64,000 bases of DNA from IMG/VR virus record IMGVR_UViG_3300043122_000050, one strand, 5' to 3'. The notes beneath the pieces are model-generated. The model was not told where the DNA came from. It saw nothing but the letters and a program-made list of their open reading frames with translations, and did not search any database. Below are positions 45,572 to 62,518 of the stretch, one piece after another (position 1 is the first letter of the stretch; each line of letters begins with the position of its first letter). Source of the stretch: a virus. Position numbers and translations under genes: made by a program.

Positions 45572-46698
45572 TTACTCCGTAACTGGTAGGTTCTTCATCG
45601 CATTAGATGAATATTCCTTGATTTTTTCCAAGACAAGGTCAGCTGTCTTCTGCGGATCACCCCCACCATCCACACTAATGGAAATTTTATCTACCATCAT
45701 CATGGGGGCGTTTACACCGGGCAGTCGATTATAAGAAGATGTTCTGTAAGGATCAAATGCCGGGCGATTCAGGTTATCCATAGTGACTTTCTCTTGGAGA
45801 TTAGAGATAGCTGTACTTGTAGGGAAGTCAGCAGAACTCTTAACTTTTTCAAGGTGCTCTTCAGCTTTTGAAGCATACACACTATGGGCAACATTCAGTG
45901 CGATTGTTGCAGCTACCAAGGCTGCAATTAGTGGGTGTTTGGCTATCACGCTAAGTATTCCTCCTACCATTCCACCAGCGGCACCTGCCCCATTGACAGC
46001 AGCAATACCACCAGCAATCTTGATTAAGTTGGAGGCGATCAACCCAAGTCCCACAGCAAATGCTGTAGTCTTCAAGCCTATCTCAGCCCAAGCATTATCT
46101 TGAAGAAATTCAAGGAAGTCTTTGGTATAAGATTCACCGCCCTTCAGACCAACAGAGATATCTTCCAGTACAAGGAATAGTATACCTGCGGCTGCTGCGA
46201 TTCTACCAAACCTTGCGGCAAGAAGTAAAGCCATTCCTGCTATTCCTGCCATCCCCTCGTCTGAAACCTCAAAATACCTAGCCATCCTTGAAAAGCCGCC
46301 TATTATGTTGTCAATGCCTACCACAACCCTTTTAAAAACATCTCCTAGGTTATTCCAAACACCTCCCAACCTTCGCGCCATTTCATAGTTATCCCTCATA
46401 ATATCTGAGAGGGAGTTAAAGATTTTTGCAAACCCTTGCTCACCACCATTCTTGGAGAATATACCTACAAACTTTTCAAACTGGAAGTTCATCCTTCCTT
46501 GAGCAACAATAGATGTACCGAGCGCAATTTGGTATGCATTGTTTGCTTCAGACATCTTTTCCATGTAAGCTGCCATTTTTGGTAGCATTTCATTAGGGTC
46601 AAGTTGTCCAGCTTCCATCATTTTGTTAAGAGCTTTGGTGTCTCCACCAGTCATAACTTCAGCGGCAATTCTAACTGCTGCTGGTAATCTTTCAGCTA
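45572..46698 (-). CDS. Tape measure protein, exon 2 of 2
   Basis: The frame is open from 46698 (..AERLPAAVRIAAEVMTGGDTKALNKMMEAGQLDP..). Gly/Ala-rich TM-like region. Joins in frame to 47717..48896. Confidence 0.75.
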
Positions 46699-47716
46699 CG
46701 TTTGTGTTCAGGAGAGGTCGTTAATCTCTCCCCGCTTTATTCAAGCTGCTATATGTTTCCATATAGACCAGACTATATCTTGTTGCACATGTGCGCAACC
46801 TCACCATTTCCACTCACTTGAGTGTACGCCCGTAGGCTAGTCGTTGAAGTTTACAACTACCAACTATATTTACAAGATATATGTTTGAAACCTCTACGTC
46901 TTTTTATATCGTAGATATGATCAAGTTTCACACTCTTGTTTGTACACAAATCATAGATTTCTTTCGGGCCTACGCCCCTCTCTATCATTTGGCAAATCCA
47001 TTCCACCGTTTTCTCAGACAACCTTTCGGACTTAGCCTTTATTGGAATATCTGGTAAATTCTTTGTTATCTCAGTCCAGTTAGTTTTGGATTTAATCTCC
47101 ATAACTGCTGTTCTTGAAAGGTTGTACTCTTTAGCAAGATCAGAGTTTCTTGCCCCGTTATATAACTTCCAGTAAACCTCTAATACCTGATCACTAGATA
47201 GGATTGATCTACCGTTTGATTCTCCAACATTAGTGTTAAGTCCGTTAGAAAAAGCATGTTGCTGATTTTCTTCCCTTGTAACCCACTCTAGGTTTGATAA
47301 GGTATTATTTGTCTTAATCCCGTCAATGTGGTTGACTTCACTCTTAAAGTCTGGGTTTGGTATGTAAGTTAGAGCTACAAGTCTGTGTATCAGGAAAGCT
47401 CTAGCTACACCATCGTCACATTTAATATTAACCCTTAAATAGCCATTCCTAATGAGTCTGGGTTTCATTAACCTGTTTCTGTGAAGGCTAAAAACATTAC
47501 CCTGAGTATCTATCTTGTAGTTCTTTGCAAATGGAATTTCTTTCATATAATTCTCCTTACTTAGTCATTCTGGAGTTTGTAGTTGTCTTACCTGCTGATC
47601 GCCCAATCTTGACAATTTTCAAACATTCACGCTCGATATTACTATCCACGTTGTAGTTTGTCAAGCTCTAAGGGGTTTCCAGCAATTAAATGAGTTTAAA
47701 GTCAGCTATTATGTTA
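46699..47716 (-). mobile_element. Group I intron (T4 td-like core) in the tape measure gene, carrying a homing endonuclease ORF
   Basis: The 5' exon ends GUCAGU, which pairs with GCUGAC 10 nt into the intron (U.G at the splice site). The intron ends ..GAUUAACGACCUCUCCUGAACACAAACG. Conserved AACGACUA and GAUAUAGUCUGG blocks are present. Confidence 0.8.
46857..47546 (-). CDS. Intron-encoded HNH_3/NUMOD4-type homing endonuclease
   Basis: HRLVALTYIPNP and VNHIDG.K.NN..SNLEWVT motifs, with C-terminal HTH-like repeats. AAGGAGA RBS. Collinear with 59288..59971. Confidence 0.8.
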   Translation of the reverse strand: MKEIPFAKNYKIDTQGNVFSLHRNRLMKPRLIRNGYLRVNIKCDDGVARAFLIHRLVALTYIPNPDFKSEVNHIDGIKTNNTLSNLEWVTREENQQHAFSNGLNTNVGESNGRSILSSDQVLEVYWKLYNGARNSDLAKEYNLSRTAVMEIKSKTNWTEITKNLPDIPIKAKSERLSEKTVEWICQMIERGVGPKEIYDLCTNKSVKLDHIYDIKRRRGFKHISCKYSW

Positions 47717-48896
47717 ACTGACCGCGAAGTTCCTCCGCATAAACCTGTTGTTTACTTACCATTTGCGACACTGCTCGAAAAGAACCTTTCATGGCCTCTT
47801 CATCAAGACCCATCACAGTGCCGTATTTCATAAACGATTTGAAGATTGTTTGTTCTTGTCCGCCAAGGGCTGTACCTTGAATGGAAGCTGCGAGCTTAAC
47901 AAACTCAGGCCCAAGACCTCTTACCGTTTTACCCATCTCTGCTCCTACAGAGTTGAGGAAAGCCATGTTCTCTGCTGCTGCTTGTTCTGACCCAGATACA
48001 GCCAGCAAAGCGTTCTCTACAGACTTAAGCTCTTGTCCAATCTTATTGAAGTTGACAGCAGCGTATGCAGCACCGAAACCCGGAAGTAATCCAGACATAC
48101 TACTAGAAGCAGCTCCGACAGCACCACCTACTGTAGCACCGCCAAACATACCTCTACCACCCGGTCTTCCAGCTCCACCCCCTCCCATTCTAGAAGCAAT
48201 GGCTTGAGCTTTCAATTCAGCAGCAGTGATAATAGCAGCAGCTCTCTTAGCCCCAGCTTCTCTGATAGCTGCTGTACGTTGAGCCATGATAGCTTCACGT
48301 CTAGCTACGTTCTCTTGGATTCTAGCTAAGTTTTGTGCAGCTCTTGATCTCCGCATATCTTCACGCATTGCAGCAGCGTGAGATTTATCCATACCCTCGT
48401 ATGCAGATTGCTTAGCTCCAAACAACTGATTGTACATTGCCTGCTGGGCATTTCTGGCTTTGTTCGTCATATTAGACGATCCACCAGTTAGTCTACCTAC
48501 ACTCTCCCTGAAGTTTGTTTGCCAAGCCTTAGCATTCTTACCAACTGCTCCGGGGCCAGACCACTTCCTAGTTTGCCTTGTAGCCCCTTCCCCAAACAAT
48601 TTATCATACATTGCTTGTTGGGAAGCTCTACTAACTTTGTTGTTTGCTTGTTGTATCTTTCTAGTAACAGCAGCTCTTTTATTAAGAACCTTATTACCAT
48701 CAGAGATAGCTTTGTTTAAATTCTTATTCTGTGTAACTAAGCTAGAAGCTTGTTTAGCAGACTTCTTAGCGCCAGCCTCCATGTTATGAAGACCACGCTC
48801 AATATTATCTAAAGATTTGCCCAGACGATCAATAGACTTCTGGTCTACCTTAATACCAATCTGAGCAAAATAATCAGCAATCTTTTGTCTTGCCAT
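47717..48896 (-). CDS. Tape measure protein, exon 1 of 2
   Basis: Long Ala/Gln/Lys-rich helical sequence ending ..QQVYAEELRGQ(L). A stop occurs 2 codons into the intron. Confidence 0.75.
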
Positions 48897-51507: not shown

Positions 51508-51840
51508 CGTTACTTTCACAAAGAGGCGTTAACTCTTTGCTGGTTTACTTTTACATAAACTCCACTCACACTTTCATGTAAGACAAGACTATATCTTCAC
51601 CCTCTTAACAAGTAGGGTGTCTCCCATTTCGCCTCACTTGAGGCTACGGCATTCCTGCCTAGTCGTTGAACCTTCCCCTCATCAGGGCTTGGCTGCTGAT
51701 TGCCACATAATGTATTGTTCTCAGACATTCACGCTTAACTATATCTCAAGTTTACGTTGTAGTCAACACACCTTCGCGGGATTCCAGCAATTAAAGAGAT
51801 TTTTCACTAACCAATTACTTGATTAGGCGACCTTTTTCAA
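51508..51840 (-). mobile_element. ORF-less group I intron (333 nt) in the sheath-like gene
   Basis: Shares UUUAAUUGCUGGAA, CUACAACGU, AGCGUGAAUGU, AACGACUAG and GAUAUAGUCUUG blocks with the TMP intron. The 5' exon ends in U (UCGAU/GUCG P1). The intron ends ..AGUAACG. Confidence 0.75.
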
Positions 51841-52800
51841 ATCGACAAATTCACCACCAACCATCTTACCGTTAGTAGTTGCGTTTACACCACCAATGTT
51901 CTCATAAGTGTTTACGTTCTTATTAAGAAGATTGACAGTTTCAGTACCAGTTAGTTTATCTACCGAAGTACCAGTGAGGGTTTTATAAGCCCAAGTGTTA
52001 CTGCCCGGAAGAGGTTGAATCTGATAAGCAGTCCAAGCACACTCTGGATAGTTAGCATCGGCATCGGCTTTCCACATGATAGCTGTCTTGTTATAACCAA
52101 GGTCTTTCAGTTGGGAGGCAACGTCAGTGGTTACAGCAGTTTTGACAGCAGCAGAGTTGGTGGAAGTGATATACACTTTCTCACGAGCTTCAATGGCTTC
52201 AGCCAGCTCAAGGATAACAGCGTCAGAATGATCTTCAGCGTTCAGTGCAATCCATTGGTTGTTAGAGAACTCAACAGCGGTGAGGGCGTCAGACCAACTT
52301 TCAGTGGATGCTTTCTTAACAATACTTAGGTTGCTAGAAGTAGTGATACTCCACTCAGCACCCGGCACTGCAACATCAACTTCAAAAGTACCGTCAAGGT
52401 TGTCTGTGAAGTTTACACCAGTGATTTGGAGTTCGGCAGCTACAGCCAGATCAAGAGCAGTGATAATCTCAATGGCAGTGGCAGAAGCATCAGAGGTGAT
52501 TGCAACCTTGACACCATTAATGGTTACGCTATACTCGGTGCTATTAGAAACAGTAGCAACAGTACCGTCTACACCATCAATCTGCTTACGGCCAATGATT
52601 ACAGAGGCTGGAACAAGCTCTTGACCAAAGTAACGAAGACCAGCTTCATATACCGAGGAACCAGAACGGAAATCTTCAGCGAGAGCGCCAAAGGATGTAT
52701 ATGTACGTGTACGTTCAGCGAACGCTGTATGCTCAGCCAAGAAAAGAGGGATGTTAAAAGCAGCTCTACTTACTGCTTGTGTCTCCCTGCTGATGCTCAC
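51841..52800 (-). CDS. Tail sheath-like structural protein, exon 1 of 2, GTG start without an obvious RBS
   Basis: Ends ..NGKMVGGEFVD and joins to VMIGVLWLTARM.. in exon 2. Total 423 aa. Confidence 0.65.
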
Positions 52801-59105: not shown

Positions 59106-60125
59106 CGCTTGTTCGACGAAGATCGTTACACTTCGCCCGTTCTCTTATGAACTGCTGCATGTTTCCATGCAGGCCAGACTATATCATCACCCTTCTACTT
59201 GAGTTAGGGTGCCTACCATTTCCACCCACTTGGGTGTACTCCCTTGCGGGATAGTCGTTGGACGCTTACGATTGAATTGCTGATTATTTAAAAGTTATAT
59301 TCTTTAGAGATATTTGTGTAGATTTTCCTTTTACGCAAACCATGTAGAAGGTTGGCATTAATTTCGGAATTTCTACTTTCCGAGATTATCTCGGCGTTTG
59401 TCTTACCTTCGGCAATAAGATCACAAACCCATCTTATAGTGCTTTCGGAGAACCTTTTAGCTCTGTTTACTTGAATATTGTATTCTTTTGAAATGTGTCT
59501 CCATGCTTTCTTAGCACGAACCATTGATATAAAAGAACGATGAACACCTGTGGTGCGCTCTATGTCAATGTTCCGCATACCGCTCTGAAGCAGTTCACAC
59601 ACTTCTCTTACTTCTGCTTCTGTGTACTTTGAGAGGTAGTGGTTTTCACCAATACTATTGTCAAGTAACCCATTCTCATGGGCATGTTCATAATTACCTT
59701 TATGACTAACCCACTCAAGGTTTTCTACACAGTTATTAAGCTTGTTACCATCTTTATGGTTAACGAGAGGTAGACTGTCTACGTTAGGGACAAAAGCTTC
59801 TGCCACAAGTCTGTGTACAGAGTGTTTCTTAACGCTTCCATCTTTGTAGTAAATAGCGACTCTTGCATACCCGGCATTTGAAATATCGGGAGTAAGTGCT
59901 GCACCAGTCTGACCAATCACTGCACCATCTTCAGTAACGAAGTAGTTATCAGTTTTTGCAATTCTTTTCATTTAAGCCTCCTACAGATTCGGAAGCAATT
60001 CAATCGTTTTCGCTCAGGATTACCCACGACATCACTCGTTTGGGCTTCCCCTGAATTAGATAGGTTTTGGAGCTAGGCTCCGAGGTCATCATACCAGATT
60101 TCTCTGTGTATGCCACTAGAAGTTA
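59106..60125 (-). mobile_element. Group I intron in the portal gene, carrying a homing endonuclease ORF
   Basis: P1 is GCCAU/GUGGC (U.G at the splice site, 9-nt loop). A 5-bp P10 forms between UGGAA of exon 2 and UUCUA next to the guide. The core blocks AACGACUAUCCC, CAAGUGGG and GAUAUAGUCUGG are present. The intron ends in G. Confidence 0.85.
59288..59971 (-). CDS. Intron-encoded HNH_3/NUMOD4-type homing endonuclease
   Basis: HRLVAEAFVPN and VNHKDGNKLNN..ENLEWVS motifs. TAGGAGG RBS. Full-length paralog of 46857..47546. Confidence 0.8.
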   Translation of the reverse strand: MKRIAKTDNYFVTEDGAVIGQTGAALTPDISNAGYARVAIYYKDGSVKKHSVHRLVAEAFVPNVDSLPLVNHKDGNKLNNCVENLEWVSHKGNYEHAHENGLLDNSIGENHYLSKYTEAEVREVCELLQSGMRNIDIERTTGVHRSFISMVRAKKAWRHISKEYNIQVNRAKRFSESTIRWVCDLIAEGKTNAEIISESRNSEINANLLHGLRKRKIYTNISKEYNF

Positions 60126-62177: not shown

Positions 62178-62424
62178 CATGATTGTTCAAGAAAGTTCGT
62201 TACTCTTTCTCCGCTTTCGCAGCTACATATTCCTATGCAGACCAGACTATATCATCATCCCGTAGGATGCCCACCGCTTCCACTCACTTGAGTGTACTCC
62301 CTTTCGGGATAGTCGTTACGCTTTCTGAAATTAATCAGCTTAGCTCGGTATTGTCCGTTCTGGAGTTTCACCGAATTCAATGGGTTATTCGATCAACATT
62401 ACTGTTGAAAGGGACTGTAGGTCA
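62178..62424 (-). mobile_element. Compact ORF-less group I intron (about 247 nt) inside the terL Walker A codons
   Basis: P1 is GGGAU/GUCCC (9-nt loop, U.G at the splice site). Core AACGACUAUCCCGAAAGGGAGUACACUCAAGUGAGUGG...GAUAUAGUCUGG. The 3' boundary was chosen so that the ligated exons read GGGAGCGKS. Confidence 0.7.
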
Positions 62425-62518
62425 ATCCCGCGCCGCCGCCGAAAATTATAATGTCAGCAGGACAGTTTAAAAACATCTTTTGTTTCGGGCTTGAAGGCCC
62501 ATAAGCTTGATTTGTCAA
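62425..62518 (-). CDS. terL: Terminase large subunit, exon 1 of 2 (31 codons plus 1 nt), TTG start
   Basis: AAGGAGG RBS 6 nt upstream of the TTG. Reads (M)TNQAYGPSSPKQKMFLNCPADIIIFGGGAG. This ORF is not in the supplied track. Confidence 0.7.

Follow-up and report, generated by a model that had tools for sequence, protein, structure and literature searches.

Tape measure protein (TMP) genes, which govern tail length, have been described with group I introns in the Vibrio cholerae myophage ICP1 and in prophages of the Bacillus cereus group. The ICP1 TMP transcript is made up of four exons plus three introns, as established by RNA sequencing and reverse transcription PCR, and the middle intron, or introns 1 and 3 in the case of isolate M4, contains an HNH-3 endonuclease gene (Barth et al. 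2023, PMC10448857). The same work calls the TMP gene 'frequently interrupted' and reports that ICP1 terL is spliced as well (PMC10448857). For the Bacillus prophages, the account by Tourasse and Kolsto (2008, PMC2504315) places the TMP introns IVS1-3 in group I, subgroup IA1 or IA2, and describes them as polymorphic between related phages and inserted in conserved target sequence. According to that account, related intron cores adapt to other sites via changes in P1, and both TMP-IVS3b and a tail-tube intron lack a complete endonuclease gene (PMC2504315). Here, we describe the TMP gene of a 64,000-nucleotide (nt) stretch of viral DNA, the IMG/VR record IMGVR_UViG_3300043122_000050 (hereafter the window), which is split by a 1018-nt group I intron that carries an HNH_3-type endonuclease gene of 229 amino acids (aa). 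We consider it very probable that this is a self-splicing intron that restores the TMP frame and that its I-HmuI-like endonuclease promotes homing into empty sites of co-infecting relatives. The gene, the motif, and the endonuclease family of such an element have already been published with experimental support, and the window is a further case in a new phage lineage.

The split tape measure gene

The intron and exon coordinates given below are those of the whole window, and all genes in this region are read on the minus strand. A slash within a sequence marks a splice site or an insertion site. The features of the locus, with the evidence for each in parentheses, are as follows.

48896-47717, minus strand: TMP exon 1, aa 1-393 and the first base of codon 394 (open reading frame (ORF) list and sequence)
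47722-47701, minus strand: P1 helix, exon GUCAGU (47722-47717) with guide GCUGAC (47706-47701) and a U·G pair at the 5' splice site (sequence)
47716-46699, minus strand: group I intron, IA-like, 1018 nt, with the ORF in the P6 loop (split RF00028 matches, covariation, same-site orthologues)
47700-47579, minus strand: 5' catalytic domain with the P3 5' strand, P4, P5, P5a-c (GUAA tetraloop hairpin), and the P6 5' strand ACAACUAC (47586-47579)
47558-47552, minus strand: ribosome-binding site (RBS) AAGGAGA of the intron ORF, 5 nt before the ATG (sequence; AAGGAG is also found upstream of orthologous ORFs)
47546-46857, minus strand: predicted homing endonuclease gene, 229 aa, with NUMOD4, an HNH_3 motif, and two C-terminal helix-turn-helix units (Pfam, PHROG, 1U3E)
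46860-46699, minus strand: 3' catalytic domain with the P6 3' strand GUAGUUGU (46860-46853), P7, P7.1, P7.2, the P3 3' strand, P8, P9, P9.1, and P9.2
46698-45572, minus strand: TMP exon 2, aa 394-768 and the stop codon (frame open and conserved from the splice site on, LAERLPAAVRIAAEV)

Removal of 47716-46699 joins CAG U to UA GCU GAA and results in a stop-free ORF of 2307 nt and 768 aa. The joined protein reads ..LRGQLAERLPAAVR.. and, written at the junction, ..EELRGQLAERLPAAVR.., with GQLAERLPAAVR as the junction-spanning peptide, and the ligated RNA is predicted to read ..GGUCAGU/UAGCUGAA.. (also written ..CGCGGUCAGU/UAGCUGAAAG..). Joining the exons in frame restores the invariant TMP motif EELRGQ/LAERLP. 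The junction contains a 1-nt sequence ambiguity (T/T), and it was resolved to 47716-46699 because a 5' U·G pair and a 3' terminal G are required. The ORFs called at this locus do not follow these boundaries. The upstream ORF, 48896-47709 (395 aa), ends in ..VYAEELRGQLT and a stop; exon 1 proper ends in ...AEELRGQ plus the U at 47717, and translation of the unspliced RNA would end two codons inside the intron (..GQLT). The ATG at 46654, with which the ORF finder begins the downstream ORF (46654-45572), is internal to exon 2 and is not a start codon.

The two exons match TMPs as a single piece. Exon 1 alone matches profile positions 5-113 of Pfam TMP_3 (PF20155) with 30.8 bits, which falls short of the cutoff of 41, and the exon 2 ORF alone has no Pfam match. 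The joined protein scores 53.2 bits over aa 285-456, covering profile positions 5-175 and running through the 393/394 junction. When 232 aa centred on this junction were used as a query, they aligned in one piece, with at least 80% coverage, to 1018 phage genome records, which include Pseudomonas KIL and PAK_P3-like phages and Pectobacterium phage Bobbio. The C-terminal 120 aa of exon 1 likewise match the TMPs of Pseudomonas, Pectobacterium, and other phages, and the best uninterrupted protein homologue (770 aa; P0001, where P0001 and L001-L139 are labels of fetched homologue and contig records) is 70% identical over its full length. In the relatives, the TMP gene is preceded by a tail chaperone gene (Phage_TAC_15) and followed by distal-tail/baseplate genes (Dit_like and Pam3_gp18), and the ORF layout of the window is identical. 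At the nucleotide level, a megablast search of the 3.5-kb region against phage genomes found no close relative, and its sole match was 115 nt of the KIL nrdB intron. Based on these comparisons, the reading of exons 1 and 2 as one tape measure gene, interrupted within codon 394, is well supported.

The position of the insertion is conserved. In an alignment of 17 TMP sequences, Q393, A395, E396, R397, and P399 are invariant, and the most conserved 12-residue window, 388-399 (EELRGQLAERLP), contains the insertion site. A first-pass annotation of the window had proposed a 1018-nt intron at 46699-47716 that splits the TMP gene after ..AEELRGQ within its one well-conserved motif and that encloses a 229-aa HNH_3 ORF with its own AAGGAGA RBS; the intron coordinates, the ORF, and its RBS proved exact, and the statement about the motif held as well.

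The intron fold and the encoded endonuclease

The intron can be folded into a group I core from which the ORF is looped out. P6 is formed by ACAACUAC with GUAGUUGU, the ORF lies in the loop between them, and its stop codon UAG (46859-46857) is inside the P6 3' strand. In the 3' domain, P7.1 is closed by a UACG loop and P9 by a GAAA loop, and two further hairpins follow P9. The last nucleotide of the intron is G46699, and every orthologous intron ends in ..(A/U)(C/U)G immediately before UAGC. P1 shows compensatory variants among the orthologues, with AUCAGU pairing to GCUGAU in one contig (L135) and GCCAGU pairing to GCUGGC in another (L136).

Covariation was measured in eight ORF-deleted intron cores, namely the orthologues, the nrdB intron of Pseudomonas phage vB_PsyM_KIL1 (KIL1), and the sheath intron of the window, aligned from P3 on. 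The structure tested was hand-drawn, extends from P3 to P9.2 including the P3/P7 pseudoknot, and comprises 74 pairs and 501 cells; P1 was checked by eye. Standard pairing was found in 96.2% of the 501 cells, as compared to 32-42% when the 3' partners were slid by 1-3 columns. Changes on both sides were present in 40 of the 74 pairs, and none of 500 shuffles equalled any of the observed measures. P7.1 (GCC-UACG-GGC) and P7.2 (CACUC-AAGU-GAGUG) were 100% paired, with 3/3 and 4/5 pairs covarying, respectively. The P7 strands, GACUA and UAGUC, are invariant and hence uninformative for covariation. These two extra helices, inserted between P7 and the P3 3' strand, mark the intron as IA-like. The group I fold of the TMP intron is established as far as sequence can establish it, and the RNA would be expected to be catalytic. 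An intein and a programmed frameshift were also considered as explanations of the split gene, and both were ruled out by stops in all frames relative to the exons, by the separately initiated ORF, and by the group I core fold.

The intron ORF encodes a protein of the I-HmuI type. Pfam detects HNH_3 (37.7 bits, cutoff 24.8) and NUMOD4 (25.3 bits, cutoff 23.4), and PHROGs assigns the ORF to phrog_59, HNH endonuclease. The sole solved structure matched by sequence is that of I-HmuI (1U3E, E=2e-12, residues 7-108), with the alignment covering 1U3E residues 10-109. An AlphaFold model built with 34 homologues has a mean predicted local distance difference test (pLDDT) score of 90.7, and 1U3E is once more the one significant match that Foldseek finds for it (E=2.2e-8, 165 columns); in its C-terminal half, the model shows a weak likeness to paired-domain tandem helix-turn-helix folds (Foldseek E ~0.01-0.02). 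The HNH (beta-beta-alpha-metal) residues H54, N72, H73, N81, N85, N94, and H97 are invariant in the 34 homologues. Six orthologues that were compared are all 229 aa long and stop-free, and in every lineage sampled the ORF is intact at 229-234 aa. The ratio of nonsynonymous to synonymous substitution rates (dN/dS) is about 0.10-0.15 (0.10 against L123 and 0.14 against L124, comparisons with unsaturated dS). The low dN/dS and the intact orthologues therefore indicate that the endonuclease gene is kept by selection. It should be noted that purifying selection argues only for a functional protein, for which site-specific cleavage or nicking of the empty allele would be the presumed activity. As a side observation, a sigma-70-like match (TTGACA-17-TAATAT, 10/12) is located at 47664-47636 on the minus strand, ~90 nt ahead of the start codon of the endonuclease gene; the conserved P5a helix and the GUAA hairpin both overlap with the match, which may be structure-constrained sequence only.

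Taken together, exon joining, colinearity with uninterrupted TMPs, P1 and the terminal G, covariation, the I-HmuI-like ORF, and polymorphism at the site (see below) bear out the first-pass identification of a group I intron with a homing endonuclease in the TMP gene. In the mechanism that we propose, the RNA would fold after late transcription and use guanosine to cut after U47717, and the exons would then be joined after G46699, which would allow the full 768-aa TMP to be made. The endonuclease would bind the uninterrupted TMP site of a co-infecting relative via its N-terminal sheet and tandem helix-turn-helix units and would nick or cut nearby, and repair would copy the intron, the endonuclease gene, and some flanking exon into that site. 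Insertion into the most conserved stretch of an essential gene would provide persistent target sites, and the element would be tolerated only if it is cleanly spliced.

Recurrence, empty sites, and mobility

The same element is found at the same site in other phages. A protein search with the ORF retrieved 1743 homologues, and contigs were fetched for those at 98, 77, 72, 56, 55, 53, and 49% ORF identity. All seven hold the ORF between TMP_3 exons at the same site, with upstream exons that end in ..EEL(R/K)(G/L/N)Q or ..EEARSQ and downstream exons that start with LAE(R/Q)... The intron-plus alleles are those of the window, L123-L130, L135, and L136. Their TMP exons range from 100% down to 37% identity to those of the window, the introns at the TMP site in other phages are 65-98% identical to the window intron, and all orthologues have an in-frame stop soon after the 5' splice site. 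These comparisons indicate that the intron and its endonuclease recur site-specifically in metagenomic myophages with E217/Pam3-like tail modules, in at least seven lineages other than that of the window.

A comparison with the TMP genes of relatives, which the first-pass annotation had suggested as a way to find intron-minus alleles, yielded empty sites in five contigs (L002 and L131-L134). The empty site of L132 is the exact exon-junction DNA of the intron-plus alleles, GGTCAGT/TAGCTGAACGTATGCC (site sequence GAAGAACTTCGTGGTCAGTTAGCTGAACGTATGCCTGCT), which could be either a ready target or the product of precise loss. L133 and L134 encode TMPs that are ~31% identical overall, and the residues flanking the site (~350-440, window numbering) are 93-100% identical at the aa level and 71-83% at the nt level. 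In other homologues, L131 among them, this patch is only 27-67% identical at the aa level. The patch in L133 and L134 could stem from an ancient exchange of this core segment or else from very strong constraint.

L131 is 95.6% identical to the window in flanking DNA, yet its TMP is intron-less. The two differ by more than the intron, in that the whole C-terminal two-thirds of the TMP is replaced (window 45574-48064 versus L131 3639-5185). The break is near 48064, in a Gly-rich linker (~aa 255-300), and identity resumes exactly at the TMP stop. The swapped module is 13-67% identical at the aa level in sliding windows, and the DNA identity is 95.6% upstream and 89.9% downstream. The TMP intron lies 347 nt inside the segment that is swapped in L131, and L131 does carry the sheath intron.

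Several observations weigh against our interpretation and are gathered here. At the Rfam gathering threshold (RF00028, 50 bits), the TMP intron is not called, and the three other group I introns of the window are. A permissive search gives two half-matches that flank the ORF, 46749-46981 (32.4 bits) and 47502-47750 (22.5 bits), both below the gathering score. P10 is weak, with 2 bp. The residue that precedes the catalytic His is Asn in the window ORF versus Asp in I-HmuI. A codon-aware analysis of sliding identity against the five intron-less alleles (71-92% nt identity) found no near-identical co-conversion tract around the site, so recent homing into the sampled relatives is not demonstrated. 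Finally, splicing and endonuclease activity in the window phage are both predictions from sequence.

The Rfam result can be accounted for, since the ORF splits the core into two matches; ORF-less or ORF-degenerate relatives pass RF00028 (54 bits for the KIL1 nrdB intron and 106.6 bits for the sheath intron of the window). It would also fit a reading in which nothing is spliced and a free-standing HNH gene separates two distinct TMP-like genes of 395 aa and 360 aa, such that the tail is built with two polypeptides. Both ORFs are listed, each with an ATG, and free-standing HNH genes are common between phage structural genes (PMC10448857). However, the conserved open frame of exon 2 extends 45 nt upstream of the listed ATG and reaches the 3' splice site, and the break interrupts an invariant motif as well as a single Pfam domain. 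The RNA between the exons shows a group I fold with covariation, the boundaries are identical in eight lineages with covariation in P1, and the homologous ICP1 arrangement is spliced (PMC10448857). We find two separately functioning genes scarcely credible at this locus.

The missing co-conversion tract bears on a second possibility, namely that the intron is spliced but no longer homes, the ORF being a decaying or domesticated remnant and the element spreading passively by tail-module recombination. The difference between L131 and the window, a swap of the whole TMP C-terminal module instead of a clean intron gain or loss, is in line with this account. The KIL1 nrdB intron, which has lost its ORF except for a remnant of the start, and the ORF-less members of the family in the window genome itself also point in this direction. 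Nevertheless, the ORF is intact in every sampled lineage, and the invariant HNH residues and low dN/dS do not suggest decay. In addition, one endonuclease lineage tracks one site across TMP exons that are 37-100% identical, as active homing predicts. An immobile intron is thus very unlikely in our judgment, and current homing would be the better description of the element.

Related introns and known systems

The TMP intron is one of four related introns in the window, of which two contain paralogous endonuclease genes and two do not. The other three are listed below.

~51508-51840, minus strand: ORF-less sheath intron, which splits a DUF3383/E217_gp31-type sheath gene (Rfam 51565-51850, 106.6 bits)
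59106-60118, minus strand: portal intron, ~1 kb, which splits a Portal_Mu gene (exon ORFs 60850-60116 and 59089-58355; boundaries by eye)
~62178-62440, minus strand: terL intron, near the 5' end of the Terminase_6N/6C ORF 62190-60859 (Rfam 62223-62434, 65.8 bits)

All four share a 3' tail composed of P9.1, P9.2 with a ..UAACG.. loop, and then UGAA..CG at the splice site. In the sheath intron, the 3' end lies ~57 nt past the Rfam match (..GUGAAAGUAACG/GUUAUG), beyond P9.1 and P9.2 hairpins that resemble their TMP-intron counterparts, and the terL intron has a tail of the same architecture (..AGAGUAACGAACUUUCUUGAACAAUCAUG/). The terL intron is near the 5' end of its gene; therefore, the first exon must be short and would be missing from the annotation, a situation also reported for terL of ICP1. 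The portal intron contains an ORF (59971-59288) of 227 aa with HNH_3, a full-length paralogue of the TMP-intron endonuclease (32%, E=1e-39), and its Rfam match consists of the 3' core only (59155-59362, 53.5 bits). The first-pass annotation had interpreted the TMP and sheath introns as versions of one element with and without the endonuclease. The two introns do share four 5' motifs in one order (at 27/61/84/118 of the TMP intron and 56/89/116/151 of the sheath intron) and belong to one family, but they are only 62% identical over the core and closer relatives exist, among them the TMP-site introns of other phages (65-98%), so the direct pairing goes too far.

Another, for the 5' domain only, is the nrdB intron of KIL1 (L001 2271-2638), which is 88.7-89% identical to the TMP intron in the P3-P5 domain and 61% identical in the 3' domain. 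Its P6 loop contains an RBS, an ATG, and a short ORF, MRKFHPIFTRYSTDIDGNV followed by a stop, with a NUMOD4-like start (MRKFHP..YSTDIDGNV). This ORF resembles a NUMOD4 N-terminus left behind when a related endonuclease gene was deleted, and the two halves of the intron (5' 89%, 3' 61%) appear to have different histories. A 23-nt motif from P3/P4/P5, AATTGCTGGAAACCCCTTAGAGC, is present in at least 120 IMG/VR viral contigs (L003-L122), several of which have 2-3 copies (L047, L055, and L060). The upstream host ORFs, classified with PHROGs because Pfam was mostly uninformative, form 46 clusters and, among the matches listed, are mostly structural or replication genes. The host types include other TMP families, sheath, major capsid, portal, virion structural protein, DNA polymerase III alpha, and nrdB. 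A tblastn search of the 120 contigs with the window TMP found no homologue. Other TMP families (phrog_10871 and phrog_4211) account for at least 6 of 77 upstream host ORFs, and the intron of one of these contigs (L030) is Rfam-positive. On this distribution, the family of the TMP intron is far more widespread than isolate genomes indicate. It also argues against the first-pass view of the TMP as an unusual intron host, as do the TMP introns described in Bacillus (PMC2504315) and the spliced introns in the same motif of ICP1 (PMC10448857).

The presence of four introns of one family in late genes of a single phage could indicate that the element is kept for the benefit of the phage, either because splicing sets the amount or timing of the TMP relative to the truncated 395-aa product, or because the endonuclease excludes co-infecting relatives. 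Such a benefit is not exclusive of self-splicing and homing. The in-frame stop close behind the 5' splice site in all orthologues, the old association of the endonuclease lineage with one site (49-98% identity), and the purifying selection on its gene would be in keeping with it. On the other hand, close relatives (L002, L131-L134) manage without the intron, and all of these features are equally expected of a purely selfish homing element, so host benefit is not required by the sequence. We therefore consider a beneficial role unlikely, and a homing element that splices itself from the TMP transcript would suffice.

The practical value of this case is mostly in annotation and in the comparative series, and the understanding of how such elements work is unchanged by it. 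Gene callers split an essential TMP gene into two 'hypothetical' or TMP fragments and an HNH gene, the default Rfam search misses the intron, and the identical mis-annotation is found in all related metagenomic contigs that were fetched. The locus adds a well-populated case, with at least eight lineages and empty-site relatives, to the TMP introns of ICP1 and Bacillus. One intron family in four late genes of a single phage also provides a natural series for the re-targeting of a core through P1, for endonuclease gain and loss, and for persistence at one site.

We also raise a broader idea, which is doubtful at present. The EELxGQLAERxP motif might be a long-lived homing hotspot across distant myophages (ICP1, marine vibriophages, and the E217/Pam3-like group), at which one I-HmuI-like lineage persists under purifying selection, and repeated homing might shuffle the C-terminal, length-determining module of the TMP among phages that are nearly identical elsewhere. 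If true, the intron would be a driver of tail-module mosaicism and not only a passenger, and the swap between the window and L131 would be an example.

Among known systems, the Bacillus TMP introns reside in siphophage prophages of Gram-positive hosts, in an unrelated TMP of >1200 aa and at other insertion sites; the re-targeting through P1 reported for them is also seen among the TMP, portal, sheath, terL, and KIL1 nrdB introns. The KIL1 nrdB intron (KU130126, annotated as a joined CDS) shares the P3-P5 domain with the window intron and differs in its host gene, a ribonucleotide reductase, in its P1, and in the deletion of its endonuclease gene. The T4 td intron with I-TevI resembles the window intron as a phage intron of subgroup IA that is located in an important gene and has its ORF looped out of P6, whereas I-TevI is a GIY-YIG enzyme and the td host gene encodes thymidylate synthase. 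The enzymes of the SPO1 and SP82 DNA polymerase introns, I-HmuI (1U3E) and I-HmuII, have the same order of an N-terminal DNA-binding sheet, an HNH motif, and a C-terminal helix-turn-helix. I-HmuI is 174 aa long with one helix-turn-helix unit and is hosted by DNA polymerase, and the window ORF has 229 aa and two units that resemble a paired domain. Nicking is known experimentally for I-HmuI, and that the window ORF product would nick rather than cut both strands is only an analogy to that enzyme.

The closest described system is that of ICP1, in which, as in the window, the TMP of a myophage, belonging to the same Pfam family, is interrupted by group I introns with HNH_3 genes in the same conserved motif (SKNQVMA/EELK/GQL/EVMP in ICP1 and SKQQVYAEELRGQ/LAERLP in the window). 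ICP1 has three TMP introns within ~30 nt of coding sequence, and the window has one. The site of ICP1 intron 3 is within ~2 nt of the window site. In the ICP1 DNA (L139 3812-5620 and L137 2023-4325), TMP exons 2 and 3 are only ~10-14 nt each, and the exon before intron 3 apparently ends in G instead of the usual U. Rfam detects group I cores at the ICP1 TMP introns. The host lineages differ, the window phage being metagenomic with an E217/Pam3-like tail module, and the introns themselves have hardly any nucleotide similarity; splicing has been shown in ICP1 and would be expected in the window. Despite this divergence at the nucleotide level, the 3' tail of the ICP1 intron resembles that of the window intron, with CUGAACAAGAAAUG/ following a hairpin whose loop reads ..UAGCGAAC.., both phages have an intron in terL, and the endonuclease of M4 intron 3 is 37% identical over 94% of the window ORF. 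The same TMP arrangement is found in Vibrio phage 1.084.O, with an endonuclease that is 44% identical to the window ORF.

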